Shown: positions 1 through 62,630 of the stretch, piece by piece | Numbering within the stretch: position 1 is the first letter of the stretch | How the letters are laid out: each line of letters opens with the position of its first letter | Origin: an uncultured Eubacteriales bacterium | GTDB lineage: Bacteria; Bacillota; Clostridia; TANB77; CAG-508 | Assembly: GCA_902492015.1 (NCBI GenBank) | Contig: CABUJR010000006.1 | Location: 50,421 to 114,420, forward strand | Reading direction: 5' to 3' | Length of the DNA: 64,000 nucleotides | Made by a program: the position numbers and the translations under genes | The notes under the pieces: generated by a model | Seen by the model: the letters and a program-made list of their open reading frames with translations, nothing else | Database searches by the model: none | Told to the model about the DNA's origin: nothing

Positions 1-1035
1 AACAGGATAGATTGGAGTAGATTATTAGAAAAAAGTTTCTTAACAGATGGTGTTCCACTATTTTTTATGATAACAGGATTTTTCTTAGTAAATGGACGAA
101 GTTATAAAAAAATATGGAAAAGCACAGCTTTAAAAATATTATTACCAAGTTTTTTATTTGTTATATTTACACAAGTTTTTTATCCATTTATAGTAAATCA
201 AGAAAGTTTTATGTGGTGTATAAAAAACTTTAACATAAATACTTTAGGTGTTGTGCAGTCTATTTTAAAAGCAGATGTTAAATATTTAAATCCAACTTGC
301 GCACATCTTTGGTACATTTATTCTTATGTGAAAATAGTAATATGGATTCCTGTTCTTTGGCTAGTTTGCAAAGAAACAAAAGAATCAAAGCTTGCAAGAA
401 AAATAATGATAGGTCTTTCTATTTTGAACATAGTTTTAGTAGATATACAAAGATTTGTTACAATACCAAATATTGGGGCAATTAATATTTTAAGTTTAAT
501 TCCAACAGAAATTTTATATGTTTTGTTAGGATATGAGTTATTTGTACATAAAGACAAGATTAAAAATAACAAAAAAATATGTATAATTTCTTTAATGGGA
601 TATATAGGAATTAATTTATTAAGATATAAAATAGAAATGCAATATATGGTACTTAATTATCTTACAGATATTGTAGGTAGAGAAAACTTTATGGAATGGA
701 GATATACTTCAATAAATATAATTTCTGGTTTGTTTTTATTCATGTTCTTATATTCTTTTGAAATAAAAAATAGAAGATTAAATAATATAATTTTATGGAT
801 AAGTAATAAAACTTTTGGAATATATCTAGTACATTACTTAATACTTGCAAAAATTGATTTATATAAATTTGAAAAAATAGAGAAGTTTATATTTGAACTT
901 GCATATTTAGCAATAGGTTTAATTTTAACTTTAATACTTTCAATAGTAATTGTTGTAATTTTGGAGAATATAAAGAAAGCAATAGTAAAATGTATAAAAT
1001 TCTTAAAAATAAAATTACTTGTTGAAAATAGATAG
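1..1035 (+). CDS. Acyltransferase family 3 (OatA-like) membrane protein, 5'-truncated by window edge
   Basis: Frame is open from nt 1 (NRIDWSRLLEKSFLTDGVPLFFMITGFF...). Polytopic hydrophobic protein with an acyltransferase-3-like FFxITGF motif. Confidence 0.55.
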   Translation, partial: NRIDWSRLLEKSFLTDGVPLFFMITGFFLVNGRSYKKIWKSTALKILLPSFLFVIFTQVFYPFIVNQESFMWCIKNFNINTLGVVQSILKADVKYLNPTCAHLWYIYSYVKIVIWIPVLWLVCKETKESKLARKIMIGLSILNIVLVDIQRFVTIPNIGAINILSLIPTEILYVLLGYELFVHKDKIKNNKKICIISLMGYIGINLLRYKIEMQYMVLNYLTDIVGRENFMEWRYTSINIISGLFLFMFLYSFEIKNRRLNNIILWISNKTFGIYLVHYLILAKIDLYKFEKIEKFIFELAYLAIGLILTLILSIVIVVILENIKKAIVKCIKFLKIKLLVENR

Positions 1036-1069
1036 AATAATATAATTTATTTAATTTGGAGAAATAAAT

Positions 1070-2275
1070 ATGAAAGAATCAATAAAAAATATTTTATTTG
1101 AAGTACTAATTTTTTTAGCGATAATAGTAGTAGCTATTATATGTGTATATTTGCAAAGTCATAGTATTATGATTAATTTAGATGACAATTCTACATATAT
1201 AGAAAAAAAGGATGCCAAATTAACATCAGGAGAAAAAATAACTATAGAAAAAGAACAGGGAATTGCATGTATAATTTTAGGAATAACAATTTTATTATTT
1301 ATAGTTAATTTTGATATGATGCATAGAAATGAAAAAACTAAAGAAATTTCAAGAGAAGTGGAAAATTTAATTTCGCCTTCACTTGCAGAAGTTGTAATTG
1401 ATGGAAAAATAGAAATAAAACATTTAATAATGTCAACAATTATAGATTTAAGTCTTAGGGGAAATATAGAGATAATAAATAATGATACTATAAGACTTTT
1501 ATCAACAGGAAATTTAGAACTTTATGAATCAAAAATTATAGATTTAATATTTCAAGATAGTAATGTGGTAGCTTTTAAAGATATTAATAAAATATTTAAA
1601 AAATCTAATAAAAAAACTGTAGAATTTAGTAAGCAAGTTCAGATTATTAAAAAATTAATTGTGGAAAAATTATATAATATTAAGATTTTTTCTGCTGAGA
1701 AAACCTTAATTAATAAAGTTATAACTTCTATATCTTTGTTTTTAATAATAAATTTAATTTTAATACTTTCAGGTTTCTTAAATGCAATAGAAGCTTTAGT
1801 TACAGTTAATATAATTTTAATTGTAGCATACATATATTATTTATATAAAGGTACTTCAATGTTAGAACAAAAAGAAACAAATGCATATAAAAGTGAAAAA
1901 AGAAAATTATATATTTTAATGATATGTATAGTAGTTTCTTTAATTTTAACTATAGGAAAAATCATGATTTATAAACCACAAATGATTCTTCTTGTTTTAC
2001 TAACAGTTGGCTTAAATATAATTATTATAAAAAATAGCAAAGATGTTGTTTTAACAGATAGAGGAAAAATAGAAAAATTAAAATTATTAAGACTTAAAAA
2101 TTATATTAATGAATATAGTCTAATAAAGGATAGAGATTTAAATTCGTCTGTTGTTTGGGATAAATATTTAGCTTATGCGACAGCTTTTGAGATACCAAAC
2201 AAAGTAACAGATTCTATTTATGAATCTTGGTATGACTTAAATCTTACTTTGCAATTTATTGATAGAATTTTGTAG
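1070..2275 (+). CDS. Hypothetical polytopic membrane protein
   Basis: 401-aa ORF with several hydrophobic helices and an aggaaataaat-ATG context. No recognisable catalytic motif. Confidence 0.5.
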   Translation: MKESIKNILFEVLIFLAIIVVAIICVYLQSHSIMINLDDNSTYIEKKDAKLTSGEKITIEKEQGIACIILGITILLFIVNFDMMHRNEKTKEISREVENLISPSLAEVVIDGKIEIKHLIMSTIIDLSLRGNIEIINNDTIRLLSTGNLELYESKIIDLIFQDSNVVAFKDINKIFKKSNKKTVEFSKQVQIIKKLIVEKLYNIKIFSAEKTLINKVITSISLFLIINLILILSGFLNAIEALVTVNIILIVAYIYYLYKGTSMLEQKETNAYKSEKRKLYILMICIVVSLILTIGKIMIYKPQMILLVLLTVGLNIIIIKNSKDVVLTDRGKIEKLKLLRLKNYINEYSLIKDRDLNSSVVWDKYLAYATAFEIPNKVTDSIYESWYDLNLTLQFIDRIL

Positions 2276-2451
2276 TTGAATATATTATGAAGATTAAAAA
2301 AGTTAAATTTATGTGTTAATTATAAAATCAATTTTTAAGATTAATAAAACAAGATATACAAGTTAATATATTTGCTGGACTTTTAAAAATTTATATGATA
2401 AAATGTTTTAAATTAAATTATTGTGTAAAATAAGTATAGGAGGACTAATTT

Positions 2452-2739
2452 ATGGAATTAAAAAGATGTGCTCGTTGTGGTAAATTTTTTGCATCAGATG
2501 TAGATGTATGCAACGAATGTGAGAGAAAAGATGTTGCTGATTTAAGTAAGTTAAAAGTTTTTTTTGAAGGAGGATATTCAAAAGGAATTTCAAAAATGGA
2601 AATTTCAGCTTCAACAGGTATTAGTGCAAGAAATTTAAATCGATATTTAGGCTATGAAGAATTTAGTGGTATATATGTATCAGAAGAAAATGCTGGTAGT
2701 ATAAATGAAAAAATAGTAGACGGAAAGATTAGCTTATAA
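2452..2739 (+). CDS. Small zinc-ribbon (CxxC...CxxC) plus HTH-like protein
   Basis: 95 aa with CARCGK...CNEC N-terminus. RBS aggagga 8 nt upstream. Lies directly upstream of tyrS. Confidence 0.5.
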   Translation: MELKRCARCGKFFASDVDVCNECERKDVADLSKLKVFFEGGYSKGISKMEISASTGISARNLNRYLGYEEFSGIYVSEENAGSINEKIVDGKISL

Positions 2740-2759
2740 TATTAGGAGGAATTACATAG

Positions 2760-3974
2760 ATGACAGATATAATAAAAGAACTTGAAGAAAGAGGATATAT
2801 TGAACAATTAACACATGAAGAAGAAATAAGAAAATTGTTTCAAAAAGAAAGTGTTAGTTTTTACATAGGAATTGACCCAACAGCAAATAGTATGCATATT
2901 GGACATTTTGTGGCATTAATGGTAGCTTCTAGATTACAAAAAGCTGGACACAAACCAATTATATTAATGGGTGGAGGAACAGCAACAATAGGAGATCCAT
3001 CAGGCAGAACAGATATGAGACAAATGCTTACAAGAGAACAATTAGATTCAAATGTTGAAGCAATAAAAAAACAAGCAGAAAGATTTGTTTCTTTTGAAGG
3101 AGAAAATGCAGCAATTATAGTTAATAATGCAGACTGGTTATTAGATTTAAAATACATAGATTTTATGAGAGAAATAGGATCTCATTTTACAGTAAGCAAA
3201 ATGCTTGCTCAAGAATGCTATAAAACAAGACTAGAAACAGGTTTAACATTTTTTGAAATGGGGTACTTATTATTACAAAGTTATGACTTCTTATATTTAC
3301 ATGATAAATATAATTGTAAGTTACAAATTGGTGGAAATGACCAATGGTCTAATATAATCGGCGGTGTTGAATTAATTAGAAAAATTGGTGCAGAAGATTC
3401 TTATGGATTAACATTTAAACTTCTTACAACAGCTGAAGGTAAGAAGATGGGTAAAACAGCAAAAGGTGCTTTATGGTTAAATCCAGAAAAAACTTCACCT
3501 TATGAATTTTATCAATATTGGAGAAATATTGGAGATACAGAGGTTGAAAAAGTACTAAGTTTACTAACTTTTTTACCAATGGATGAAGTAAAAAGATTAT
3601 CTTCATTAAAAGATGAAAAAATAAATGAAGCTAAAAAAATTGCTGCCTATGAAATTACAAAATTAATTCATGGTGAAGAAGAAGCTAAAAAAGCAGAAGA
3701 AGCTGCTGAAGCTTTATTTGGAAATGGTGGAAATATAGATAATATGCCTTCAACAAAATTAGAAAATATTAATATTTCAATATTAGATGCAATAATAACT
3801 GTTGGTATGGCTCCATCAAAAGGACAAGCAAAAACTTTAATTTCACAAGGTGGGATTACTTTAAATGATAATAAAGTAGAAGATATTTCATATATATTAA
3901 GTGAAACAGACTTTAAAGATGGATATGCTATTTTGAAAAAAGGTAAAAAGGTATTTCATAAATTAGAAAAATAG
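2760..3974 (+). CDS. tyrS: Tyrosyl-tRNA synthetase
   Basis: HIGH motif (SMHIGHFVAL), KMSKS-like KMGKT, and a C-terminal S4-like domain. RBS aggagga. Confidence 0.93.
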   Translation: MTDIIKELEERGYIEQLTHEEEIRKLFQKESVSFYIGIDPTANSMHIGHFVALMVASRLQKAGHKPIILMGGGTATIGDPSGRTDMRQMLTREQLDSNVEAIKKQAERFVSFEGENAAIIVNNADWLLDLKYIDFMREIGSHFTVSKMLAQECYKTRLETGLTFFEMGYLLLQSYDFLYLHDKYNCKLQIGGNDQWSNIIGGVELIRKIGAEDSYGLTFKLLTTAEGKKMGKTAKGALWLNPEKTSPYEFYQYWRNIGDTEVEKVLSLLTFLPMDEVKRLSSLKDEKINEAKKIAAYEITKLIHGEEEAKKAEEAAEALFGNGGNIDNMPSTKLENINISILDAIITVGMAPSKGQAKTLISQGGITLNDNKVEDISYILSETDFKDGYAILKKGKKVFHKLEK

Positions 3975-4015
3975 AGTTTATATGAAAACTAATTGAAAAA
4001 AGGATAAATAAAGTT

Positions 4016-4046
4016 CTAGCAAGAATATTTTGCTAGAGCTTTTTTA
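4016..4046 (+). terminator. Rho-independent terminator after tyrS
   Basis: Stem ctagcaa / ttgctag with a 7-nt loop, followed by a T-run. Confidence 0.7.
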
Positions 4047-4083
4047 TTTACTAGGAAAGTGCTCCGTACCTACTACTAAATAA
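4041..4083. repeat. ~40-nt repeat copy A (TTTTTTATTTAcTAGGAAAGTGCTCcGtaCCTaCTaCTAAATA) at left edge of GC-rich islet
   Basis: Near-identical to the 21061-21100 copy and partially to 6756-6792. All three follow a terminator hairpin. Confidence 0.6.
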
Positions 4084-4228
4084 AGGTTTACGCCCAATAT
4101 TGCACACAAGTTTTTTTCAAAAAACTTGGTAGGACGAACAAAGACGTGAACATCTTCATAAAATTTAATCTTTTGCAATTATCATAATGTACACTTTTGT
4201 TCTATGATAGAAAGGACTCTTACTTAAG

Positions 4229-4257
4229 TTGAAAATATTATGTAAATATGTTATAAT
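4229..4257 (+). promoter_or_regulatory. Sigma-A-like promoter for the rSAM islet (TTGAAA-17-TATAAT)
   Basis: TTGAAA at 4229-4234, 17-nt spacer, TATAAT at 4252-4257, about 95 nt upstream of the rSAM start. Confidence 0.5.
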
Positions 4258-4354
4258 AAAAAATGGTAATCTTTGTTAGAGAATAAGACAAGTGGATAAG
4301 CTTGTTAGGTAGATTCTCAAAACAAAAAACACAAAGTATCAAGGAGGAACGAGT

Positions 4355-5728
4355 ATGAAGCTAAGAACAAGGATGTACCTACGGAAAAGACTAAATGAAG
4401 TCAAACACACAACTTTAAACCCAAACGGGCCAGGTGTTGTTCGGATTCATTTGGTGCCACCGAAAGCTGGCAAAGAAGATGCACCAGCAGTAGTAATTAT
4501 TAACGGAAGGGATTTGCTGCCTATTAAACCTTCGTGGAGTTTACTTTTGGCAGAATTCATAACGCAAATAAACTACTATGCTGGAAAATCTCTTTCAGAG
4601 GATGACCTTCGCACAATAAGAGATAACACTTTTGTGCAGGTAACGAAGGTTTTCAGGAAAGTGGATCGCGACCTGTTAAGAGATGACCTGAAATCACTGA
4701 TGGACACGTTATGTAAGATTGCATACGGAGAAGAAGTGGACGAAGACATTCCATATATGTCTATCGGTGAATATGCATCCTACATGAGTGCTCCGCACAG
4801 AATTGATTTAATGATAAGCAGTATGACCAAATCTGGAAAATGGCATTGTAACCAGAGATGTGTTAACTGCTATGCAGCAGGTCAGACTGAAGCGGAAGTC
4901 AATGAACTTTCTACAGAAGAGTGGAAGAAAATCATTGACAAATGCAGAGCCGCATATATACCACAAATTACATTTACCGGTGGAGAACCAACAATGAGAA
5001 ATGACTTGGTAGAACTTATTGACTATTCTCAATGGTTTGTAACCAGGTTAAATACCAATGGTATTCTCCTCTCAAAGGAGCTTTGTAAGCAACTTTATGA
5101 GGCGAGCTTGGATAGTGTACAAATAACTCTATACTCATCTGACGAAGCCGAGCATGAGGCACTTACCGGTAGTTGCGGTACCTTTAAACACACAGTACAA
5201 GGAATAAAAAATGCCATAGAGGCAGGACTGAATGTGAGTATTAATACTCCGCTGTGTAAAGGAAACTCAGATTATGTAAAAACACTCAAGTTTTTGCATA
5301 GCTTGGGAGTAACTTATGTTTCTTGTTCTGGTATTATTTTTACTGGAAATGCGAGAAGCAAGACTGCAAAGGAAAAGCAACTGACAGAAGATGAGCTTTT
5401 CAAGATTCTTAAAGAAGCGACAGCATATTGCTGGCAAAATGATATGGAGATTGCATTTACATCTCCTGGGCAAGTTTCAGAAGAAAAACTTGAACAGCTC
5501 GATCTATCTCTTCCCACATGTGGTGCTTGCCTTAGTAATATGGCTATCGCACCAAATGGCAATGTTGTTCCATGTCAGAGCTGGTTAAATGGCAATTCTG
5601 TATTAGGAAACATGCTGTCTGATCCGTGGAAGAGAATTTGGAATTCCCCTAAAGCCTTAAGTATCAGGGAGTTTTCTGCTCGGATGGAGCATACATGCCC
5701 ATTAAAGACAGTAAAGGAGGACAAATAA
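4355..5728 (+). CDS. Radical SAM enzyme with SPASM/twitch-like C-terminal Cys-rich domain and ~160-aa N-terminal (RRE-like?) extension
   Basis: CNQRCVNCYAAGQ (CX3CX2C) at about aa 165. Later Cys clusters CKGNSDY, SCSG, CGAC...PC, HTCP. Strong RBS aaggaggaacgagt-ATG. About 43% GC against a 27% background. Confidence 0.85.
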   Translation: MKLRTRMYLRKRLNEVKHTTLNPNGPGVVRIHLVPPKAGKEDAPAVVIINGRDLLPIKPSWSLLLAEFITQINYYAGKSLSEDDLRTIRDNTFVQVTKVFRKVDRDLLRDDLKSLMDTLCKIAYGEEVDEDIPYMSIGEYASYMSAPHRIDLMISSMTKSGKWHCNQRCVNCYAAGQTEAEVNELSTEEWKKIIDKCRAAYIPQITFTGGEPTMRNDLVELIDYSQWFVTRLNTNGILLSKELCKQLYEASLDSVQITLYSSDEAEHEALTGSCGTFKHTVQGIKNAIEAGLNVSINTPLCKGNSDYVKTLKFLHSLGVTYVSCSGIIFTGNARSKTAKEKQLTEDELFKILKEATAYCWQNDMEIAFTSPGQVSEEKLEQLDLSLPTCGACLSNMAIAPNGNVVPCQSWLNGNSVLGNMLSDPWKRIWNSPKALSIREFSARMEHTCPLKTVKEDK

Positions 5729-5729
5729 T

Positions 5730-6689
5730 ATGAAAGCAAAAACAATGGTAACACGGATAATTATTGTTTTGGCTGTTATTTTCACTTTACTGCCAATAAC
5801 AGTATATGCCAAAGAACCCCTGGATGAAATCCAGGACTACACAGTAACAGTTGACCTTAGACCTGATGGAACAGCAGATATCAAGTATCATCTGGAATGG
5901 AAGGTACTTGATGACAGTTCAGAAGGCCCTTTGGAATGGGTAAAAATAGGTATTGCAAATGAGAATGTTGATGAAATTACAGCATTAACAAGCAATATAA
6001 GCAAGATCAAATATTACCCAGAGGGATCAGATGATTATGTTCGCATAGATTTTGATAGAAAATACTATGCGGGGGAAGTCATAAATTTTGATTTCTCACT
6101 TCATCAGAGTCATTTGTACGTAATGGATAAAGAAGAGCATCTGCTCAGATATTCTTTTACACCGGGCTGGTTTCCTGAAATTGAGGTAAAAAATATCACT
6201 ATCAAATGGAATAAAAATAATGTGATTAAAACCTCAGCAGAACAAGAAGATAGCAATGGATATTATGTTTGGAATGGAAGCTTAAGCTTTGATGAAAGGC
6301 TTAATGCATCTGTTTCTTATAATCTGGATGCTTATGCTGCTACTGAAGAAGGTCAGGCTCAAGAAAAGGAAGAAGATGGAATACCAACGATTTTGGTAAT
6401 AATTCTTATTGTACTAATTGTTATATTGGTAATAGTAGTTCTTGTAGCTATCTTTTCAAACGATGATGATTATGGTTCTGGTAGAGGTTATGGAGGAGGC
6501 TCTCATTATAGGAGCACATATATCCATACACATCATTCTTCTTGCGTAAGTAGCTGTGCTTGCGTGCATTGTGCATGTGCATGTGCATGCGCAGGCGGTG
6601 GAAGAGCAGGATGTAGCAAGAAAGACTTCTACGGTACTAATCTTAAGAAAGACATGATGGATAAGGTTCTAAGCGAAGAGCTGGACTAG
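5730..6689 (+). CDS. DUF2207-like single-pass membrane protein with cytoplasmic Cys/Gly-rich tail (putative rSAM substrate)
   Basis: Signal peptide, about 190-aa ectodomain (IQDYTVTVDLRPDGTADIKYHLEWKV), TM helix IPTILVIILIVLIVILVIVVLVAIF, and tail ...GGGSHYRSTYIHTHHSSCVSSCACVHCACACACAGGGRAGC. Start is 2 nt after the rSAM stop, with RBS aaggagg. Confidence 0.6.
   Translation: MKAKTMVTRIIIVLAVIFTLLPITVYAKEPLDEIQDYTVTVDLRPDGTADIKYHLEWKVLDDSSEGPLEWVKIGIANENVDEITALTSNISKIKYYPEGSDDYVRIDFDRKYYAGEVINFDFSLHQSHLYVMDKEEHLLRYSFTPGWFPEIEVKNITIKWNKNNVIKTSAEQEDSNGYYVWNGSLSFDERLNASVSYNLDAYAATEEGQAQEKEEDGIPTILVIILIVLIVILVIVVLVAIFSNDDDYGSGRGYGGGSHYRSTYIHTHHSSCVSSCACVHCACACACAGGGRAGCSKKDFYGTNLKKDMMDKVLSEELD
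6570..6593 (+). repeat. (TGYGCA)4 hexanucleotide microsatellite encoding the CACACACA tract
   Basis: tgtgca tgtgca tgtgca tgcgca, in frame as Cys-Ala repeats. Confidence 0.8.
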
Positions 6690-6723
6690 TAAAAGACCAA
6701 AAAAAGATTTAATTTGTGTTAAA

Positions 6724-6765
6724 GATAGCAGGGCGGAGATTTCCGCGCCTGCTATCTTTTTATTA
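6724..6765 (+). terminator. GC-rich rho-independent terminator ending the rSAM islet
   Basis: gatagcagggcgg ... ccgcgcctgctatc stem followed by tttttatta. Confidence 0.75.
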
Positions 6766-6792
6766 TATAATAGGAAAGTCCGCTTGGCTTCC
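6756..6792. repeat. Degenerate repeat copy C (ATAGGAAAGTCCGCTTGGCTTCC) at right edge of islet
   Basis: Shares the T-run plus TAGGAAAGT(G)C core with copies at 4041 and 21061. Confidence 0.4.
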
Positions 6793-6913
6793 AATTCTTA
6801 TAGTGTCCTATTTTGTTCCATTCTTCTTATTATAATTACTTTATAATTACTTGAAAAAAATTTTATAAAATAGTAAAATATTATTGTTATTTAATATTTG
6901 AAAGGAACAAGAT

Positions 6914-7690
6914 ATGAGTAAAAAGTTAAAATTTTTGATAATTATAGTAAGTTTAGCAGTAATAATAGGTTTAACATTCGGGATTATGGCAATATATAGA
7001 TTTTGTGTTATTCAAAGTATTTTTAAAAAGATAGATGAAAATATAGAGATAAAAAATTATTCATTAAAAACTACTTTAACAAATAGCAATGGAGAAAAAA
7101 CTGTTACACAAGCATATTATAAAGATGGAATTGGAAAAAATATTGCTTCAAATGGAGTTTATACTTGGGTAGATGAAAAGGATGCATATATGGTAGATGA
7201 AGATAATAATACACTATATGTTTTAGATATAGAAGGGGAAAATTCTATTTCATTAGTTTCTGATTCTATGTTTGCAAGTTTGGTACCAGGATATAATAAA
7301 AGCTTTTTTGAAAGAATTCTTATGGCATGTGATTTAAATTATAAAATTAAGTCTGAAAAATTAGATGATCAAAAATGTTATGTAATTGAAGATAATGAAC
7401 AAAAAGCTAAGAAAACAGTTTGGATTACTAAAGATAGAAAAAATCCAATTAAAGCAAAAGTAGAATTTGAAAATGGAGAAGTTTTTGAATATGATTATGA
7501 GCTAAAATTTTTAGGAACAAAATTAAGAGATGTTGAACTTCCAGATACCAAAAATTATACTTTGATAAATTATGAAACCGGAGAAGTAATTTTAGATGAA
7601 AATGATAATGTAAATTCAGAAACAAATACTGCTAATGAAAATACTAATACAACAAATACAGATGAAGCAAGTAATGTGGTAGAAAACTAG
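6914..7690 (+). CDS. Hypothetical membrane-anchored/secreted protein
   Basis: N-terminal hydrophobic anchor, RBS aaagga, and an Asn/Thr-rich C-terminus. Confidence 0.5.
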   Translation: MSKKLKFLIIIVSLAVIIGLTFGIMAIYRFCVIQSIFKKIDENIEIKNYSLKTTLTNSNGEKTVTQAYYKDGIGKNIASNGVYTWVDEKDAYMVDEDNNTLYVLDIEGENSISLVSDSMFASLVPGYNKSFFERILMACDLNYKIKSEKLDDQKCYVIEDNEQKAKKTVWITKDRKNPIKAKVEFENGEVFEYDYELKFLGTKLRDVELPDTKNYTLINYETGEVILDENDNVNSETNTANENTNTTNTDEASNVVEN

Positions 7691-7756
7691 AAATATAGTA
7701 TGAAATTGTTTTGTATATAGAATAATTATATTTATATTAAAAATAAATAAATGCAA

Positions 7757-7785
7757 CTATTTTAATAGTTGCATTTATTGTTTTA
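7757..7785. terminator. Bidirectional terminator between convergent genes
   Basis: aaatgcaacta / tagttgcattt hairpin flanked by A- and T-runs. Confidence 0.65.
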
Positions 7786-7851
7786 GTAATAGTCTAGTAT
7801 AAAAACTATATTTGAATAAATAAATTTATATTAATAGATTTTATTTAAATC

Positions 7852-10296
7852 TTAAAATTTTCCATTTGTGTAATCTGGTCCTTCAAAACAGCTACCTTGT
7901 TTAACAGTATCAATAATTTTTTGAATTTCATCAATATTTTCATCTAAAATATCAATACGGATAGAAGTTGATAAAATATCATCATATTTTACAGATAGTG
8001 TTTTACTATTAAACATTGTTGTTATAGTTGAAGTATTATCAGGTAAAATTCTAAACTTAAATCCTAATCTATCTTTTAAATAAAAGATATTATTATTTTT
8101 GCAAAGCTGTTTACAATCTTTATAACATCTGTTAGATTCTCCAAGATAACAATAATTATTTGTCATAACAGGTATTTTTCCATAAACGATTACTTCTGAA
8201 AGTATGCAAGATTTATTTAATACATCATTTATTTCAAATTTATTTAATTCTGGTGAAACAGTATATGCAGAAAAACCTAATTCTTTTAATTTATTTATAG
8301 AATAATTGTTATAAATATTCAAAGTAAAGTTTCCAATGTTTTCTAATTCTAAATCAGATATTTTTTCTAATTGAGATAAATGAGATACAATAAATCCTTT
8401 TATAGAAAAACTTTGTTTAATTTTTTTAAAATCTATATATTTTAGTTTATTATCTTTTATAATGTTCGGAAGATATATGTAAGTATTAAACCTATTTGCA
8501 AGTGATTTAAGTAGGTTTTCATAGTTTTTATCTAAAAAATAATTTAAAGGTATGTAAAGTCTATCTATATTTGATATTTCTAAATAATTAATATCTAATT
8601 TTAATATATTTAAAAGTAGAGATATTTTCTTAGATTTAGAATTATCTAGTAGAGTAGGAGATACATATTGAAGTTCTACATTTTCTAAATTATGCTTATA
8701 TTTATTTAAAACTAATTCTTCTAAAGCATTTAAAACCTTTCTTCTTAGTTCATTAAGAGCTCCAGTTTGTACAAATAAATTTTTATCTAAATTAACAAAA
8801 AGGTTTTCAAATTCAAATTCAGTATTTCCAGTTTTGGAAATTTGCTCTATAAGCTTATCTTTTGTAAGTGGTTGTCTTAAAGCTTTTTGAGGTATAGTAG
8901 AAGTAGTTAAATTCACTTCTAAATCTTTATAAAAACCATCATCTGACCAGACTTTAAGAGAGATTGGAGTTTTTGATTTTACAGTAATTTCTCCATTTAT
9001 TTTGACTTTTTTTAAGTTTTTATCTTCTTTAAAAGAAGGAGCTATGTATTTATTTAATTTTGAATCTTCTATTTTATATATTTTAGAACCAGTATATATT
9101 TTGCCTTTCATTCTACCAATTTTTACAGTATGTCCAGCATCTAGACTTTCATAATTTTGGTTATTTATCATCAATTCAGAAATAGTATAATTTTCATCAT
9201 TAATAGAAATTTTATCTCCAATAGATAAAGAATTTTCAAGAGTTAAAGTTATGTGTCCTTTATTTTCATTTATATTAGAAATAGTTCCAACATAAATACC
9301 CATATTATTTGGCTTTTCTTTGAAAATAATATTTTTATTAGGTGAAGAACTAAAATGTCCACTAGAAAATCCTCCACGATTAAATACTTGAGTTATTTCT
9401 TCTTTATCAGATAGCCCAGTTTCATTATTTATACTTTCTAAGTTTTTATTTATTAATTGTTTTAAAGTTTCATTATCTAAATTCATATTGTTAAAAATTA
9501 AATCAATATATTTTCTATAAAATCTTGTAACAACAGCAACATAAGTTGGAGTTTTCATTCGTCCTTCTATTTTTAAAGAAGATATACCTGATTTTATAAG
9601 TTCAGGTAAAAAAGTGACTCCAAAATTATCTCTAGGACTAAGAATGTATCCTTTATTTAGAACTAATTCTTTATTATCTGCCTCTTCAATAAGTTCATAT
9701 TGCAATCTACATGGTTGTGCACAAAGTCCGCGATTACCAGAACGACCACCTATCATACTAGAAAGTAAGCATTGCCCAGAATATGAAATACAAAGAGCTC
9801 CATGAATAAAAATTTCAAGTTCTAGTTTTGTGTTTTCACGAATATACTGAATTTCTTCTAAAGAAAGTTCACGAGAAAGTACAACTCTAGAGAAACCAGC
9901 TTTCTCGAGTTGATTAACACCGTCTAAATTATGAACTGTCATTTGCGTACTAGCATGTAATGGTATTTCTGGATGATTTTTATGCAAATAGCCTGCAAGT
10001 CCTAAATCTTGAACAATAATTGCATCTACTCCAAAATTATAAGCATTTATGGCTAAGTTTACAGCCTGATTAAATTCATCATTTTTTAACAAAGTATTTA
10101 AAGCAAGATGTACTTTAACATTCCTTAATTTTGCATAACAGATTGCCTCATATAATTCATTATTATCAAAATTTTTTGCTCTAGCTCTGGCACTAAATGT
10201 AGAAGCACCTAAATAAACGGCGTCAGCTCCATTTTGTACAGCAGCTTTTAGACACTCAAAGTCTCCAACAGGAGATAGTAATTCTATTTTTTCCAT
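7852..10296 (-). CDS. Peptidase U32 family protein (collagenase-like PrtC, with C-terminal extension)
   Basis: MEKIELLSPVGDFECLKAAVQNGADAVYLG is a U32 N-terminal signature. Start placed at ATG 10296 (RBS aaagga), not at the longer ORF start 10413. Confidence 0.75.
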   Translation of the reverse strand: MEKIELLSPVGDFECLKAAVQNGADAVYLGASTFSARARAKNFDNNELYEAICYAKLRNVKVHLALNTLLKNDEFNQAVNLAINAYNFGVDAIIVQDLGLAGYLHKNHPEIPLHASTQMTVHNLDGVNQLEKAGFSRVVLSRELSLEEIQYIRENTKLELEIFIHGALCISYSGQCLLSSMIGGRSGNRGLCAQPCRLQYELIEEADNKELVLNKGYILSPRDNFGVTFLPELIKSGISSLKIEGRMKTPTYVAVVTRFYRKYIDLIFNNMNLDNETLKQLINKNLESINNETGLSDKEEITQVFNRGGFSSGHFSSSPNKNIIFKEKPNNMGIYVGTISNINENKGHITLTLENSLSIGDKISINDENYTISELMINNQNYESLDAGHTVKIGRMKGKIYTGSKIYKIEDSKLNKYIAPSFKEDKNLKKVKINGEITVKSKTPISLKVWSDDGFYKDLEVNLTTSTIPQKALRQPLTKDKLIEQISKTGNTEFEFENLFVNLDKNLFVQTGALNELRRKVLNALEELVLNKYKHNLENVELQYVSPTLLDNSKSKKISLLLNILKLDINYLEISNIDRLYIPLNYFLDKNYENLLKSLANRFNTYIYLPNIIKDNKLKYIDFKKIKQSFSIKGFIVSHLSQLEKISDLELENIGNFTLNIYNNYSINKLKELGFSAYTVSPELNKFEINDVLNKSCILSEVIVYGKIPVMTNNYCYLGESNRCYKDCKQLCKNNNIFYLKDRLGFKFRILPDNTSTITTMFNSKTLSVKYDDILSTSIRIDILDENIDEIQKIIDTVKQGSCFEGPDYTNGKF

Positions 10297-10620
10297 ATTT
10301 ATATATCCTTTCAGGCATTTAACGCAAGTTACATCTATTATTAATATATGTACATATATATAATAACTTAAAAATATTAATATATCAACATATATTATAT
10401 TTTTTTGTAACATTTTGAATACAAAATTTTGTTTGGCTTGGCTGTTAGAACAAGTAAAATTTATTATATAGCTGTATATAAAGCGATAATCTAGTAAGAT
10501 GAGTATTTAAGAAAAAAACATTTTGTTGGATATATCACATATGAACTCGACGTGGTAACAGATGGAAATGTTAAGAAGCTTAAAGAGGAAGACTAGGATA
10601 TAAAAAAGTAAAAGAAGAGT

Positions 10621-10645
10621 AGAGCAGATTTCTCGTCTGCTCTAT
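10621..10645 (-). terminator. Terminator for 10667-11455 gene
   Basis: agagcaga...tctgctct hairpin with a T-run on the minus strand. Confidence 0.6.
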
Positions 10646-10666
10646 AAAATATTTGCCATATAAAAT

Positions 10667-11455
10667 TTAATTAGTATCTTTTGAAGAGTTATTTATTATT
10701 GTCTCCTTCATTTCATCACTTAACTCTAAAGAATCTTCAAGGGTATCAAATTGATATCCAGTATATATTTTTGAATATTCTAATTTATTATGATTATTGT
10801 AGTGTTCTTCTTTATTCAATAAACCATTATATGTATTAATATATATTAAAATTTTTTCATAAGTTTCATTACCATTTGTACTTAATCCATCGTTATCTTC
10901 AAATATAAAATCATTATAGTTAAAATCAATTTTTATTATTTTAGTTGGATTTAATAAAAATGAGATATTATAAAATTTTTTTAAGTTTTTATTCACTAAC
11001 TCATAAGGAGAGCTAGATTCATAAGAAAAGCCTTCTTCATAATTGTAATCATGAGTTAAATCTTCAATGCTAGTTAAACCTTGGGCCTCATTAAAGTCAT
11101 AACAATCAGTGTAGCTAGCTTTATTTTCAGGATTTGTATAATACCAAGAATTGACAACTTTATGATAATTAGTTATCGAACATTCAGAAGAAATATCATT
11201 TTTAAATTGAATATTGCTTTCTGTGAAAGATGGTTTATGTATAATTTCATCGTTTTCAATATCAATAGAAGTTATATCAAAATATGCATTACACAAATAC
11301 ATATAATTATTGGAATCCTTTATTTTCCCAATTTTGAAAGATATATAACTCATAATAAAAGCTTTATAAATTATTGTTAAAAAATATAAAATAAGTAATA
11401 TCAAGATTATATTTCTAATTAATTTTAATATACTAAATTTTTTATTCTTTTCCAT
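10667..11455 (-). CDS. Hypothetical membrane-anchored protein
   Basis: 262-aa ORF with an N-terminal TM helix. No recognisable domains. Confidence 0.45.
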   Translation of the reverse strand: MEKNKKFSILKLIRNIILILLILYFLTIIYKAFIMSYISFKIGKIKDSNNYMYLCNAYFDITSIDIENDEIIHKPSFTESNIQFKNDISSECSITNYHKVVNSWYYTNPENKASYTDCYDFNEAQGLTSIEDLTHDYNYEEGFSYESSSPYELVNKNLKKFYNISFLLNPTKIIKIDFNYNDFIFEDNDGLSTNGNETYEKILIYINTYNGLLNKEEHYNNHNKLEYSKIYTGYQFDTLEDSLELSDEMKETIINNSSKDTN

Positions 11456-11646
11456 ATAAATTTCCTCCTTTGTATAAAGAGTCTACATATATATTATACC
11501 ACAATCGGCTTGAAATAGCAAATTATAGAGAGTTTAGAAACATTTAAATAGATTAAAAAATTAATAAATATAAAACTAAAAAATAAGGTTTACAAATTAT
11601 AATTTTATATATAAAATAGATTATATTTGAAAGGTAGGTAATTAAT

Positions 11647-13359
11647 TTGGGAATAGGAAGAAGAGAGGTAGAAAGAAAAGATAGAAAAGTTAATATATTA
11701 AAAATACTTATAGTTATAATACTTATAGTAGCTGTAATTGTTGGAATATATTTTCTTGTAAAAAATCTTGGAAAACAAAGCAATGAGGATTATAATAAAA
11801 AAATTGAAGATGCTTTAGTTGAAGAGGTTGAAGAAGTAGAAAAGAAAACTATTGAAGAAATAGTATCAGAATTTGGCGGAGAAATAAAAGAACAAGTAAA
11901 TGATGATACATATTATATTATGAAAGATGGAAAAGAATATACTGCATACCTAGATGGAGATGTAGTAGAAGGAAGAATTGCAATTTGGAATGGTACTGCA
12001 AGTCAACCTGCTGTTGACGAGGCAGGAAATTTAAATATTTATAATGCAGAAGAATTAAAATGGGTTGCAGATCAAGTTATTTCTGGTGCTAAAAATTTTA
12101 GTGGTGTAACAATTACTTTAAGACAACATATAGATTTAAGTGGAAGAAAAAATGATGATGGTAGTTGGTCTGGTACTATTTGGACACCAATAGTTGGTTT
12201 TTTAGATGAATTACCAAAAACTGAAGATACAAATCAAACACAAAATCAAGTAGTAGAAGACACAACAGTTCAAGATGATTCTGTTAATATAACTAAGGAA
12301 AATTTAAAAAGATTTGCTGGTGTATTTAATGGCAATGGATTTTCTATAAGAGGGTTAAATATTGATTCAGATAAAAGATATGAAGGTTTATTTGGATTTA
12401 ATGCAGGTATAATTTCAAACTTAACAATTAAAAATAGTAACATCAAAGGTGGCACAGGAGTCGGAGCAATAGCAGGTTTGAACAGTGGAACAATAGAAAA
12501 TTGTTATCTTGAAAATGTTGAAGTTAAAGGTAATGAAAAAGTTGGTGGGTTTGCTGGAATTAGTATGGAAAATTCTAGAATAGATGGTTGCAATATAACT
12601 GGAGATAATACTTTTGTTTATGCTGACAAATATGCTGGCGGAATTATTGGTTATACAAATAATAATGCAACAATATTAAACTGTTCTAATAGAGCAAATG
12701 TTACTGGAAAAGATTATGTTGGAGGAATTTCAGGAATTATATTCTATGGTACTACAGTTCAAAGTTCTTCTAATATGGCTATAAATGTTGTTGGTGAAAA
12801 TTATGTTGGAGGTATAGCTGGTTATTCTCTAGCTCAAATTCAAAATAGCTATAATCACAATTCAGAAGACAAAAAAGGTATTGTAAGTGGAAATAATTAT
12901 GTTGGTGGAATAGTGGGATTAAATTATACCATGGGAAATATAACAGATTCTTATAATAGTGGAGAAATAATTATAAAAGCAGATAATGGCGGAGGTATTG
13001 CAGGATTAAATAATGCAAGCATTAGCAATACATATAACACAGGAAAAATAACTGCTGAAGAAGCAACTGGAATTAAGATAGGAGGCATCTGTGGTCAAAA
13101 CATATCTGAAAGCTATATATATACTTCTTATAATATTGGCGATATAATTGTAAAAAATGCTGGTGATGGAGTTGTTGGAGCAAATTTCGGAACAATAGAA
13201 AACTGTTTTTATCTAGATACTACAATTAATTCACAAAATACAGAAAATGCTAAGACTGATAATGATATGAAAACTGGTATTTTATCAAATTTAGGAGAAT
13301 CATTTAAAGAAGATGCTGAAAATAAAAATTCAGGTTATCCAATACTTGCATGGCAATAA
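11647..13359 (+). CDS. Membrane-anchored surface protein with tandem (Y)VGG(I)xG repeats (GLUG-like beta-helix repeats)
   Basis: TTG start with RBS aggtagg. N-terminal TM helix. At least 8 repeats of type NYVGGIAG / DYVGGISG / KVGGFAGI. Confidence 0.6.
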   Translation: MGIGRREVERKDRKVNILKILIVIILIVAVIVGIYFLVKNLGKQSNEDYNKKIEDALVEEVEEVEKKTIEEIVSEFGGEIKEQVNDDTYYIMKDGKEYTAYLDGDVVEGRIAIWNGTASQPAVDEAGNLNIYNAEELKWVADQVISGAKNFSGVTITLRQHIDLSGRKNDDGSWSGTIWTPIVGFLDELPKTEDTNQTQNQVVEDTTVQDDSVNITKENLKRFAGVFNGNGFSIRGLNIDSDKRYEGLFGFNAGIISNLTIKNSNIKGGTGVGAIAGLNSGTIENCYLENVEVKGNEKVGGFAGISMENSRIDGCNITGDNTFVYADKYAGGIIGYTNNNATILNCSNRANVTGKDYVGGISGIIFYGTTVQSSSNMAINVVGENYVGGIAGYSLAQIQNSYNHNSEDKKGIVSGNNYVGGIVGLNYTMGNITDSYNSGEIIIKADNGGGIAGLNNASISNTYNTGKITAEEATGIKIGGICGQNISESYIYTSYNIGDIIVKNAGDGVVGANFGTIENCFYLDTTINSQNTENAKTDNDMKTGILSNLGESFKEDAENKNSGYPILAWQ

Positions 13360-48098: not shown

Positions 48099-49949
48099 TT
48101 ACTTAACGGTATTACCTACCGAAGCATTTTTCTTATATTCTGTAAATAGTGAATCTAGCTCATCTCCCATTACTGTTTCTTGATCTAAAAGAAGTTTTGT
48201 AAGTGCTTTTGTGAGTTCCATATTTCCGTTGATAAGCTCTATCGCCTTCTTTTCAGACTCTTTAAGGATACTTGCCACTTTATTCCAGATTGCGTCAAGA
48301 GTATGTTGACCCAGATAATCGGTACTTGGTGCATCATCTCTAAATGATATAGGTCCTAACTCCTCGTCCATACCATACTGCATAACCATCCTTCGAGCTT
48401 TTTCTGTAGCAACTTCAAGATCGTTTGAAGCTCCTGTAGAGATATCTCCGATTAAGATTGATTCAGCAGCTCTACCAGCAAGCAAAACAATTAAACTTTC
48501 AGTAAATTCCTGTTTGCTGATATATTGTTTATCCTCTGTGCTTTCATGCATAGTGTATCCACCAGCAGTTCCTCTGGGAACGATTGATATTTCCTTTACA
48601 TTTGACTGCGTTGGAAGTAACTTGCCAACTATTGCGTGTCCTGATTCATGAACTGCAGTAATTTTTCTTTCTTTTTCTGAGATAATTCTTCCAGTTTTCT
48701 GAAGTCCTACTAATAATTTCTTTTGGGCTTCATCAATATCAGATTTATGAATAATCTCATGATTGTTCCTTGCAGCCATGAGAGCGGACTCATTAAGCAA
48801 ATTCTCAAGTTCTGCACCTGAATATCCCGCTGTGTTACACGCAATTCTATAGAAATCCACATCCTCGTAGAATTTCTTGTTTCTGGCATGCACGTGTAGA
48901 ATTTCCATTCTACCTTTTACATCAGGCAAATTCACAGTAACTTTTCTGTCGAATCTACCGGGCCTTACTAATGCAGGATCTAAGCTATCAAAGCGGTTGG
49001 TAGCACCAAGAATCACTATATCGGTTCTGTCCTTAAAGCCATCAAGTTCGATTAACAGCTGTTCGAGAGTTTGATTTCTCTCGTCATTGCTGTCTCCTCG
49101 TTTTGCTCCTATAGAATCAATTTCATCAATGAAAATGATACATGGAGCTTGCTTTCTGGCTTCTTTGAACAATCCTCTAATACGTTGAGCTCCAACTCCA
49201 ACATATTTTTCTACGAACTCTGAACCAGATACAGCAAGATATGCTACATCTGCTTCACCAGCCACAGCCTTTGCAAGTAATGTTTTACCAGTTCCAGGGT
49301 TTCCTGAAAGAAGTATTCCTCTAGGGATTTTTGCACCTAACTTTAAATATTTATCAGGATTTTTGATGAAGTCAACAACTTCCTCTAATTCTTTCTTTTC
49401 TTCGTCTAATGCTGCAACATCTGAGAACCGAACATCACTTTTGGTAAGTTTTTCCATAAAGTTAATGTCAGTATTTAGAACATTTGCAAAACTTAGAAAG
49501 TTAGAATTATCTGATTTTTTATTATTTCCTGTAAATTGTTTCGTTAGATATTTAAGCCCCATGATAAGAGCTGATCCCAAGTATACTGAAGCTACCAGAG
49601 TTAACAAGAAACCTAATATCAAATCACTAATGCTTGATTCTTCAGGTATTACTTCTAAATTTACAGGATTACCATAATAGATAATTTCATCCTGTATAAA
49701 ATTTAGAAAAACCTCCTCATTTGGAACTTCAGCCATTACTATTGTGTTATCAAGTAGTATTGCATTCACTAAGCTATCTCCCTCTTGTAGCTCAACAGAA
49801 GCAACTTTTTCTGATTCTATTAAGCTAATAAAGTCAGAGTATGACACGCTAACAGGCTTGGTTTTGGTTGGTGAATTTAAAAGCCGTACTCCTGCAAAGA
49901 TAAGAAGTGCGATTAAACCCATAAATGCTACAATTTTTAATTTTTTCAT
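48099..49949 (-). CDS. ftsH: ATP-dependent zinc metalloprotease FtsH
   Basis: Two TM helices, AAA Walker A GPPGTGKT, SRH, HESGH zinc motif. Confidence 0.92.
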   Translation of the reverse strand: MKKLKIVAFMGLIALLIFAGVRLLNSPTKTKPVSVSYSDFISLIESEKVASVELQEGDSLVNAILLDNTIVMAEVPNEEVFLNFIQDEIIYYGNPVNLEVIPEESSISDLILGFLLTLVASVYLGSALIMGLKYLTKQFTGNNKKSDNSNFLSFANVLNTDINFMEKLTKSDVRFSDVAALDEEKKELEEVVDFIKNPDKYLKLGAKIPRGILLSGNPGTGKTLLAKAVAGEADVAYLAVSGSEFVEKYVGVGAQRIRGLFKEARKQAPCIIFIDEIDSIGAKRGDSNDERNQTLEQLLIELDGFKDRTDIVILGATNRFDSLDPALVRPGRFDRKVTVNLPDVKGRMEILHVHARNKKFYEDVDFYRIACNTAGYSGAELENLLNESALMAARNNHEIIHKSDIDEAQKKLLVGLQKTGRIISEKERKITAVHESGHAIVGKLLPTQSNVKEISIVPRGTAGGYTMHESTEDKQYISKQEFTESLIVLLAGRAAESILIGDISTGASNDLEVATEKARRMVMQYGMDEELGPISFRDDAPSTDYLGQHTLDAIWNKVASILKESEKKAIELINGNMELTKALTKLLLDQETVMGDELDSLFTEYKKNASVGNTVK

Positions 49950-61889: not shown

Positions 61890-62630
61890 TTAGATTTCCA
61901 TCAATCTAATCATTTCCGATTTTTTTGATGGTTCAATTTTGGCAATCTTAAATACATTAGGTGTGATCCATTCCTTTGCAGGGGAGCTCCCTTGTATTAA
62001 TTCACCAAAGTCGTCTTGCTGCTCGCTCCAGGTCTCCTTGATTTCATCCGGGACAATAAACAGAAACTCTGGCTTGAGTAAAACGTTCCCTCTCACCAGG
62101 TCAGCTTCTTTTAGCTCATTCCAAAGCTCATCAAGCTTTCTTTCTGTTTCTTTCAGTTTCTCCATGTCTATAGGATGTATCCCCATATAGCGGATATAAT
62201 CTTGGCTACGAAATTTGTAATTCAGTTCTATGCATTCGTAAATCTTATCAGAGCACATAATTGCTTTCGTAGCAGTTTCTTTTGATTCTACGTAATCGGA
62301 AGACAACTGTAAAATGAAATTTTCATTTTTCCATTTGGTTTTTACTTCTCCCAAAAATGGAAAAGTTCCTAGTATGGGGATGTCGTCTCCGCCGCTATAG
62401 AAATGGGGCTCCATTTCGTTATAAGATATTTCCAGCAACGTGTGGGAACTTGAATCTAGTGTTGATATACATTCGCCACAACAAAATGCAATTGGAAAAA
62501 TTTCAATCTCTCCTTTTTTATTTACATGGACATTCCGAATAAATGTGATCGGAGTTACTTTGTAGCTGTAGCATTTTTCCATAATTTTCTCCTCCTTGGG
62601 AATAAATGTTTTTATGTTAACTCTAAACAT
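61890..62630 (-). CDS. Hypothetical cytoplasmic protein in GC-elevated islet
   Basis: 246-aa ORF at about 40% GC against a 27% background. No recognisable motifs; FCCGEC Cys cluster. Confidence 0.5.
   Translation of the reverse strand: MFRVNIKTFIPKEEKIMEKCYSYKVTPITFIRNVHVNKKGEIEIFPIAFCCGECISTLDSSSHTLLEISYNEMEPHFYSGGDDIPILGTFPFLGEVKTKWKNENFILQLSSDYVESKETATKAIMCSDKIYECIELNYKFRSQDYIRYMGIHPIDMEKLKETERKLDELWNELKEADLVRGNVLLKPEFLFIVPDEIKETWSEQQDDFGELIQGSSPAKEWITPNVFKIAKIEPSKKSEMIRLMEI

Follow-up and report, generated by a model that had tools for sequence, protein, structure and literature searches.

The stretch of DNA considered here (64,000 nt from an uncultured Eubacteriales bacterium, referred to below as the window) carries a self-contained two-gene operon on its forward strand, running from a promoter at 4229–4257 to a terminator at 6721–6759. 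Gene 1 (4355–5728, 457 aa) encodes a radical S-adenosylmethionine (SAM) enzyme with a Twitch-like C-terminus, and gene 2 (5730–6689, 319 aa) encodes a single-pass membrane protein. Both open reading frames (ORFs) are as described in an earlier prediction made from the sequence (the original prediction), as is the CX3CX2C motif at C165. On balance, we favor the view that the enzyme modifies the cysteine-rich cytoplasmic tail of its partner, probably through thioether cross-links. The analysis shows the anatomy of the two proteins, their obligate pairing, the invariance and exclusivity of the tail motif, the fold relationships, and the topology argument, whereas the identity of the substrate and the type of chemistry are inferred. 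An action of the radical SAM enzyme on its neighbor's Cys tail had already been suggested in the original prediction; the idea has gained support from the lack of a match to any named enzyme family, from the pairing, from the conservation of the motif, and from a fold close to those of SkfB, SuiB, and CteB, and the modification itself stands as a proposal.

The pairing of the two genes is widely conserved. In a scan limited to one genome for each species, 45 loci were recovered from Lachnospiraceae, Oscillospiraceae, other Clostridia, one metagenome-assembled genome of Bacilli, Dehalococcoidia (Chloroflexota), Aminicenantes, Zixibacteria, Krumholzibacteriia, and Chitinivibrionia; relatives of Marvinbryantia, Gemmiger, and Allofournierella are represented. 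An enzyme homologue (31–58% identity) adjoins the partner in 44 of these loci, covering at least six phyla; almost invariably its gene directly precedes the partner gene in the same orientation. The one locus without such a neighbor is a 2-kb contig that starts inside the partner gene. Reverse look-ups starting from enzyme homologues gave the same picture, since all three have an abutting or overlapping gene of ~310 aa without a Pfam domain, in otherwise unrelated surroundings. Co-occurrence had been put forward with the original prediction as a check on it, and on these counts the pairing is not due to chance. The distance matrices of enzyme and partner correlate with r = 0.86 (Mantel test, 0/999), the enzyme evolving more slowly. 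Clustering of all neighboring ORFs in the 45 loci revealed no third conserved gene; an "ABC ATPase" cluster present in 10 loci was rejected as heterogeneous and variably placed. In some Lachnospiraceae and Clostridium loci, two partner genes flank one enzyme gene. Two partner paralogues accompany a single enzyme at L010 (5482–9584) and L016 (2001–6120), three stand in tandem at L018 (7499–10136), and one paralogue at L018 (8443–9183) lacks the Cys tail. As a separate observation, a TPM-domain gene and then a LemA gene follow the pair in Zixibacteria, and a LemA gene follows it in Aminicenantes (L048, 10930–12132; L046, 2152–2793).

The proposed site of action of gene 1 is the core motif of the tail, CACACACAGGGRAGCSKKDFY (residues 281–301; 6570–6632, plus strand), which is invariant in 27 aligned homologues. 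The tail sequence quoted in the original prediction, GSGRGYGGGSHYRSTYIHTHHSSCVSSCACVHCACACACAGGGRAGCSKKDFY, matches exactly, and additional Cys residues lie just upstream of the core (SSCVSSCACVHC). The segment SSCACVSSCACACACAGGGRAGCSKKDFY is essentially invariant among the 27 homologues, which are 51–73% identical. Across 293 distinct tails, each position of the consensus CACACACAGGGRAGCSxKDFY is 88–100% conserved. No other region of the partner is as well conserved as the tail motif; identity between ectodomains falls as low as 24%. The core motif was found in all 120 best protein hits, a set that was not selected on the tail, and in 45 of 45 loci, including two in which an assembly frameshift splits it from the ectodomain ORF (L008, L028). 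Non-Bacillota members keep CACACACAGGG[RGA][AV]GC and differ downstream of it; those from Zixibacteria and Aminicenantes have an extra H-x-C-P-x-C after the motif. The linker between the transmembrane helix and the motif ranges from ~60 to 250 aa and often contains a zinc ribbon. A subfamily of ~400–490 aa (L015, 9776–11152; P0394, P0406, P0439–P0558; 2369 clusters) carries in this cytoplasmic linker, before the Cys motif, a zinc ribbon (CPxCG...CxYC) together with a conserved "SPNTY[IV]RV" sequence. At the DNA level, the motif is partly encoded by a (TGTGCA)n hexanucleotide array of ~4.8 copies (6564–6593). The number of Cys-Ala units varies from 4 to 7 among homologues, and in-frame slippage of this array may be the source of the variation.

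The exclusivity of the motif was assessed by searching the 75-aa tail alone, with HMMER, against 1.84 billion representative proteins. This gave 178 hits, and the same ectodomain was present in 90 of the 90 hits of at least 250 aa. Judged from these sequences, the motif appears to be confined to the C-terminus of this ectodomain scaffold and always to stand beside this enzyme. Hits of 59–120 aa were considered as stand-alone tail peptides and rejected. P0292 is a chimera of the enzyme N-terminus and the tail, and P0307 (locus L058) comes from an 866-nt contig broken into tiny ORFs; the remaining short tail hits are taken to be fragments too. A candidate natural fusion, P0210 (572 aa), proved to be an assembly duplication. 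In a six-frame scan of the 45 loci, the motif occurred only in partner genes or their frameshifted 3′ ends, and no short precursor was seen. The sole motif-bearing ORF of each locus is a membrane protein of 285–526 aa, which is not the short precursor that characterizes a sactipeptide or ranthipeptide cluster. Within the window, the small ORFs at 3975–4354, considered as hidden precursor peptides, lie on the minus strand and lack the motif.

The anatomy of gene 2 places this tail inside the cell. A signal peptide (residues 1–27, ending ...VYA/KEP; 5730–5810, plus strand) has a basic N-terminus, a hydrophobic helix at residues 2–20, and an A-x-A-like cleavage site. It is followed by an extracellular β-sandwich (residues 28 to ~205; 5811–6344, plus strand) that is distantly similar to the N-terminal domain of DUF2207. 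In the AlphaFold2 (AF2) model, the sandwich comprises 13 strands at residues 32–198 with a predicted local distance difference test score (pLDDT) of ~90, and Foldseek relates it to the luminal domain of OST1/ribophorin I and to the N-domain of M1 aminopeptidases. One transmembrane helix (residues 220–243; 6387–6458, plus strand), also a helix in the model, leads to the tail (residues 244–319; 6459–6686, plus strand), which is predicted to be disordered (pLDDT <50 for residues 245–305). Because of the signal peptide and the single transmembrane helix, the tail is assigned to the cytoplasm, the compartment of the enzyme. This placement agrees with the basic residues that follow the helix in distant homologues and with the zinc ribbons in the linkers.

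Gene 2 had been called DUF2207-like, a description that holds for part of the protein. The N-domain model PF09972 matches 14 of 27 relatives of gene 2 at E < 0.01 and so recurs weakly in the family; on gene 2 itself it scores 22.6 bits, below the Pfam threshold of 24.4, and covers the N-terminal domain only. The C-terminal multi-transmembrane domain of DUF2207 (PF20990) is absent from gene 2, which is therefore not a member of DUF2207. Database clusters matching the protein at E ≤ 0.001 number 3204, and a precomputed Pfam domain is absent from all 120 that are listed. Close homologues of the enzyme stand on contigs of matching lengths. A 401-aa membrane protein (1070–2275, plus strand) encoded three genes upstream of the pair matches the DUF2207 C-domain only (PF20990, 89.9 bits). 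It was found in the relative L052, not in L054. By these profile matches, the two halves of DUF2207 appear to be split between separate genes in the window, the N-like part in gene 2 and the C-domain in the 401-aa protein.

Gene 1 belongs to the radical SAM superfamily. PF04055 matches residues 165–306 with 76.2 bits (threshold 29.5), the CX3CX2C cluster motif (C165, C169, and C172; 4847–4870, plus strand) is invariant in 30 homologues, and the core superposes on many radical SAM structures. The AF2 model has a pLDDT of 84 and a predicted template modeling score of 0.86. Its best fold matches are SkfB, SuiB, anSME, and CteB, with SkfB the top structural match and also the best sequence match among solved structures. 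No NCBIfam family scored above its cut-off. The named maturase models compared included SkfB, StsB, PqqE, MftC, ScmE/F, HxsC, WgkB, and NirJ/AhbC/D; the best score was that of NirJ2 (115.9 bits against 500), and the 25 families listed were all far below their cut-offs. The original prediction had allowed that the enzyme might turn out to be a member of a known housekeeping family, and no named family was matched (best score 116 bits, cut-offs of at least 500). A defense function was also considered; in PADLOC, gene 1 showed only generic similarity to the viperin core at 55 bits, and gene 2 had no match.

The C-terminal Cys clusters of gene 1 had been read as a SPASM or Twitch domain. PF13186 (SPASM) matches residues 389–448 with 36.8 bits (threshold 21.5), and the region at 5519–5698 (plus strand) contains C389-x2-C392, G402-x4-C407, and C448, the four Cys residues and the CX12GX4C pattern being invariant. 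A SPASM domain reportedly has seven Cys residues in the arrangement CX9-15GX4C ... CX2CX5CX3C ... C and binds two auxiliary clusters. In gene 1, CX2CX5CX3C is absent after the CX12GX4C pattern (C389...G402...C407), and the only further invariant Cys residues are C392 and C448. The full SPASM pattern is thus lacking, and the Twitch alternative is the part of the earlier reading that stood; PF13186 still matches because its scope extends to Twitch-like sequences. In alignments, C407 corresponds to the "GNVLPC" Cys of BtrN, and C389 and C407 align with SuiB. Twitch is a shortened form of the SPASM domain, binding one auxiliary cluster, as in BtrN, MoaA, and SkfB (PMC10114670). From this Cys pattern, the C-terminus of gene 1 is best described as a Twitch-like domain with a single predicted auxiliary cluster, and not as a full SPASM domain.

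The N-terminal domain of gene 1 (residues 1 to ~145; 4355–4789, plus strand) is a candidate for substrate recognition. In the model, the secondary structure assigned by DSSP consists of four strands (residues 17–21, 29–34, 45–49, and 53–57) followed by three helices (59–75, 82–97, and 105–123). Its conservation equals that of the catalytic core, with H18, T20, P23, G27, R30, H32, N50, G51, D53, and W61 invariant. By its predicted topology, the region of residues 17–123 occupies the position where SkfB, SuiB, and CteB carry the recognition element (RRE) of RiPPs (peptides that are synthesized ribosomally and modified post-translationally). A PqqD-like RRE (PF05402) is a substrate-binding winged helix-turn-helix with three strands followed by three helices. 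The domain had no match in Pfam at E ≤ 10, PqqD and RRE models included, and none among PDB sequences, so that the term RRE-like refers here to its position and topology alone. For the RRE placed here in the original prediction, support comes from the predicted topology and the fold neighbors, and not from any sequence model.

The two genes are tightly arranged. Each has a GGAGG ribosome-binding site read from the sequence, as had been noted before: the site of gene 1 (4343–4347, plus strand) lies 7 nt upstream of its ATG, and the site of gene 2 (5716–5720, plus strand) falls within the 3′-terminal part of gene 1. The gap between the two codons is 1 nt (TAA-T-ATG), rather than the 2 nt given originally, and in relatives the genes abut or overlap by 1–4 nt. 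The promoter (4229–4257, plus strand) is of the sigma-70 type with an extended −10 element, comprising TTGAAA, a 17-nt spacer with TG, and TATAAT (11 of 12 consensus positions). Its 29 nt including the whole spacer, TTGAAAATATTATGTAAATATGnTATAAT, are invariant in the window and in the relatives L052 and L054, while other spacer DNA has diverged. This invariance amid diverged intergenic DNA suggests a putative regulator site overlapping the promoter. The predicted G+C-rich terminator was recovered at 6721–6759 (plus strand), with perfect 12-nt arms within a 17-bp G+C-rich stem followed by the U-run UUUUUAUUAU; the hairpin has a folding energy of −27.6 kcal/mol (z = −6.1 against shuffled sequences). 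In an Rfam search at E ≤ 1 over positions 1–12000, no riboswitch or RNA leader appeared ahead of gene 1; the sole match, below threshold, was a viral pseudoknot on the terminator. The surrounding genes are housekeeping genes (truB, ispG, tyrS, nusA, and infB).

The composition of the pair sets it apart. The G+C content is 0.403 for gene 1 and 0.372 for gene 2, compared with 0.256 for the whole window, and reaches a maximum of 0.425 in a 400-nt sliding segment. At third codon positions (GC3), it is 0.36 and 0.28, respectively, against ~0.10 in nearly all other ORFs of the window. Given these values, the compositional islet is real and lies far outside the local distribution. The contrast reported originally is therefore correct, with adjusted figures: the pair has 37–40% G+C rather than 43%, and the host ~26% rather than 27%. 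Its start was misplaced at 4040; the G+C-rich part begins at the start codon (~4350), and 3975–4354 is an ordinary A+T-rich spacer that holds the promoter.

We propose the following mechanism. Gene 1 would be a cytoplasmic enzyme of the peptide-maturase type, built from a peptide-binding-like domain at the N-terminus, a core that cleaves SAM, and a Twitch domain carrying a single auxiliary Fe–S cluster. Signal-peptide-dependent export of gene 2 would place the β-sandwich outside, with one helix spanning the membrane and the disordered tail of ~75 aa remaining in the cytoplasm. The N-domain of the enzyme would bind the invariant tail motif, and the enzyme would modify it by 5′-deoxyadenosyl radical chemistry. 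By analogy, the most probable change would be at least one intramolecular Cys-derived thioether cross-link of the sactionine or ranthionine type. Cys-X3-Asp is the acceptor pattern of PapB-type ranthipeptides, and the Bacillota motif has an invariant Cys-x3-Asp spacing (C295-S-x-K-D299). Twitch and SPASM enzymes make thioethers on Cys-rich peptides, as SkfB does on SkfA and QhpD on the protein QhpC (PMC10114670). Thioether chemistry is thus suggested as most probable by the closest structural relatives and by other Cys-rich substrates. As a guess, the matured membrane protein may have an envelope or membrane role related to the LemA/TPM/DUF2207 theme. We also entertain, more tentatively, a broader possibility: that these proteins form a new class of modified membrane proteins, widespread in gut, rumen, and sediment anaerobes of several phyla, in which a receptor-like protein with one membrane pass carries in its cytoplasmic tail an invariant Cys-Ala ladder that a dedicated radical SAM enzyme turns into a knot of cross-links, a protein-derived cofactor, or a metal site. 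In that case, the chemistry may fit no known sactionine or ranthionine pattern.

Several points weigh against modification of the tail. Its support comes from pairing, motif, predicted fold, and predicted topology rather than from chemistry. Because CACACACA was among the two patterns searched for in the genome scan, the set of 45 loci is skewed toward motif-bearing members. A Cys-x3-Asp cross-link cannot be universal because the spacing is lost in non-Bacillota members. The upstream position of the enzyme gene, together with translational coupling, suggests near-equimolar synthesis, which is commoner for subunits of a complex than for an enzyme with its substrate, and the alternating Cys run could equally be a binding site for a metal or an Fe–S cluster. 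The main rival explanation builds on the last two points. In it, the unmodified motif binds a metal or Fe–S cluster or docks on the enzyme N-domain, thereby tethering or regulating the enzyme at the membrane, and the enzyme acts on a different substrate, for example a lipid, a precursor of the envelope, or some other protein. A stoichiometric complex of this kind would fit the tight translational coupling, in which the enzyme gene comes first, Cys-x-Cys repeats resemble metallothionein-type metal sites, and a tetraether lipid synthase is among the generic radical SAM matches of the enzyme. Moreover, all four Twitch Cys residues are present, so that no open site for a substrate Cys is evident. 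We nevertheless judge this explanation unlikely. The nearest fold relatives are maturases of peptides and proteins, not lipid enzymes, and there is no further conserved gene that could provide a substrate or a pathway. The two or three partner paralogues per enzyme found in some loci are typical of substrates rather than of fixed subunits, and residues that are not ligands (A, G, R, K, D, F, and Y) are invariant across the 21 positions, which exceeds the needs of metal binding. Less probable again is that gene 2 is a long, membrane-anchored precursor whose modified Cys-rich C-terminus is cut off to act as a free peptide, either a RiPP or an effector within the cell. RiPP cores sit near the C-terminus, as this motif does, the enzyme resembles sactipeptide and ranthipeptide synthases, and the SCIFF modules of Clostridia also consist of two genes and have no transporter. 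However, the tail faces the cytoplasm, what seem to be short peptides made of the tail alone resemble artifacts of gene calling (P0292, P0307), and the ectodomain and transmembrane helix are kept in 90 of 90 full-length tail-bearing proteins, which would be pointless for a mere leader. Release is disfavored because no protease or exporter is conserved nearby and because the ectodomain always travels with the motif.

That a housekeeping radical SAM enzyme merely happens to stand beside an unrelated membrane protein is extremely improbable; the housekeeping character of the surrounding genes would fit such a coincidence, but adjacency persists across at least six phyla in otherwise unrelated contexts, and the enzyme falls in no named housekeeping family. 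A different question is whether the pair is a 2.4-kb, G+C-rich segment newly inserted by horizontal transfer, its composition reflecting the donor. The GC3 contrast with the flanking genes (0.36/0.28 against ~0.10), the pair's own promoter, and the unusually G+C-rich terminator all speak for such an event; the original prediction had inferred horizontal acquisition. The comparison with relatives makes it improbable. The same site (truB ... ispG ... tyrS, the pair, a 258-aa gene, and a U32 peptidase) is present in L052 (6626–8951) and L054 (6622–8963), where the pair is 77/73% and 66/61% identical, within the 44–92% range of flanking genes and in the same order of relatedness. Fourfold-degenerate sites are saturated between the window and L054 (identity 0.33, with 0.31 expected from composition), yet their G+C content is 0.20–0.35 in both, and no integrase, transposase, or tRNA features flank the pair. 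Flanking direct repeats were considered as insertion scars (4031–4060/6750–6779 and 4173–4205/6789–6821) and rejected, the 30–33-nt copies having 76–77% matches and being unconvincing in pairwise alignment. Of the features that define a genomic island, the pair shows atypical composition and lacks the others (absence from relatives, mobility genes, and flanking repeats). Therefore, from the shared site, the flank-like divergence, the raised GC3 persisting past saturation, and the lack of mobility genes, we conclude that the pair was not recently inserted: at 61–77% identity at the same tyrS-flanked site, it has diverged as its flanking genes have. An ancient acquisition by an ancestor of the lineage is possible. 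The GC3 of the pair stays high (0.20–0.36) in three syntenic relatives, and simple amelioration after a transfer does not explain this persistence; selection on synonymous sites and repeated replacement are candidate explanations.

Other features of the window bear on its composition and on the flanking genes. An FtsH homologue (AAA and Peptidase_M41 domains, 616 aa; 48099–49949, minus strand) is also a GC3 outlier (0.26 against ~0.10; G+C content 0.365). The highest GC3 in the window (0.39; G+C content 0.37) belongs to a 246-aa ORF without a Pfam match (61890–62630, minus strand), possibly a further gene of foreign composition. At 20 nt upstream of tyrS, a position conserved in relatives, lies the gene for a 95-aa protein (2452–2739, plus strand) whose N-terminus carries a CxxC...CxxC zinc ribbon. 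Rfam at E ≤ 1 showed no T-box leader ahead of tyrS.

The pair occurs in thousands of anaerobes from several phyla without a name or a study, and it is probably a new system of an enzyme and its protein substrate. The source annotations read "hypothetical protein", "zinc ribbon domain-containing protein", and "radical SAM protein". Neither Pfam (2025) nor NCBIfam (June 2026) nor PADLOC has a model for the partner or the motif. A full-text literature search returned no description of the pair, no text with "GGGRAGC", and none joining radical SAM enzymes and DUF2207, and the main text of a compendium of ~15,000 RiPP radical SAM proteins never uses the word "membrane". The author of the original prediction knew of no described pairing of DUF2207 with a radical SAM enzyme, and the literature, Pfam, NCBIfam, and PADLOC searches gave none. 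The family is large, with >3,000 clusters at 90% identity for the short form and >2,300 for the longer zinc-ribbon form, and is common in human-gut and rumen Clostridia. We rate the radical SAM maturase as the known element and a dedicated substrate consisting of the cytoplasmic tail of a membrane protein, with a new motif, as the new one. Almost all known radical SAM maturases act on short secreted peptides, the rest on a few soluble proteins such as sulfatases and QhpC. In this case, a full-length membrane protein appears to serve as the substrate, and its modified part would stay intracellular. Genome-mining tools look for short precursors and therefore would miss this family. If the proposal is correct, it would add a new substrate class, and possibly new chemistry, to radical SAM enzymology, and it would offer a first functional handle on the poorly understood DUF2207/LemA/TPM envelope proteins.

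Among known systems, the closest structural counterpart is the Bacillus subtilis sactisynthase SkfB with its substrate SkfA (PDB 6efn). SkfB is only ~21% identical to gene 1, with no detectable sequence similarity in the N-domain. SkfA is a short secreted peptide from an operon with export, immunity, and processing genes. Here, in contrast, the partner is a 319-aa membrane protein and no accessory genes are conserved. CteB with SCIFF, and other ranthipeptide synthases (PapB, NxxcB), combine a radical SAM maturase that has an N-terminal recognition domain, for which gene 1 has a candidate, with a Cys-rich sequence, and the structure 5wgg is among the fold hits. SCIFF modules are likewise widespread in Clostridia, consist of two genes, and have no exporter of their own, and the Cys-x3-Asp spacing of the Bacillota motif resembles that of PapB substrates. 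However, the SPASM domain of CteB is complete, with two auxiliary clusters, in contrast to the Twitch pattern of gene 1, and SCIFF is a soluble peptide of ~45 aa. Against the NCBIfam models of sactipeptide- and ranthipeptide-type maturases, gene 1 remains far below the cut-offs. The sulfatase-maturating enzyme anSME has a full SPASM domain and no N-terminal recognition domain, and the scores of gene 1 against anSME in NCBIfam and among PDB sequences are marginal. Its target motif, C/S-x-P/A-x-R, is absent from the tail of gene 2.

On the side of the partner, the likeness is to DUF2207, LemA, and TPM proteins. It consists of the weak but recurrent ectodomain match and of the TPM-domain and LemA genes that follow the pair in Zixibacteria and Aminicenantes. 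Gly-rich cytoplasmic tails are common in these families, and LemA and TPM proteins often accompany DUF2207. Conversely, the C-terminal domain of DUF2207 and its extra transmembrane helices are absent from gene 2, and neither a Cys-Ala motif nor a radical SAM partner is a DUF2207 feature. The one functional study of DUF2207 that we found deals with stress tolerance in Streptococcus mutans (PMC10457818).

QhpD and QhpC offer another parallel. QhpC is a small periplasmic enzyme subunit of ~100 aa. It is modified before export, within a multi-gene qhp operon, by QhpD, a SPASM enzyme for which no sequence relationship to gene 1 was found beyond the superfamily. It nevertheless provides a precedent for a radical SAM enzyme that installs Cys thioethers in a protein that stays functional, instead of in a released peptide (PMC10114670). 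The pair belongs to none of these families, because the short precursor, the named-family scores, the full SPASM motif, and the DUF2207 threshold and C-domain all fail; in its proposed mode of action, it parallels QhpD acting on QhpC, or a Twitch-type sactipeptide or ranthipeptide synthase acting on its precursor.

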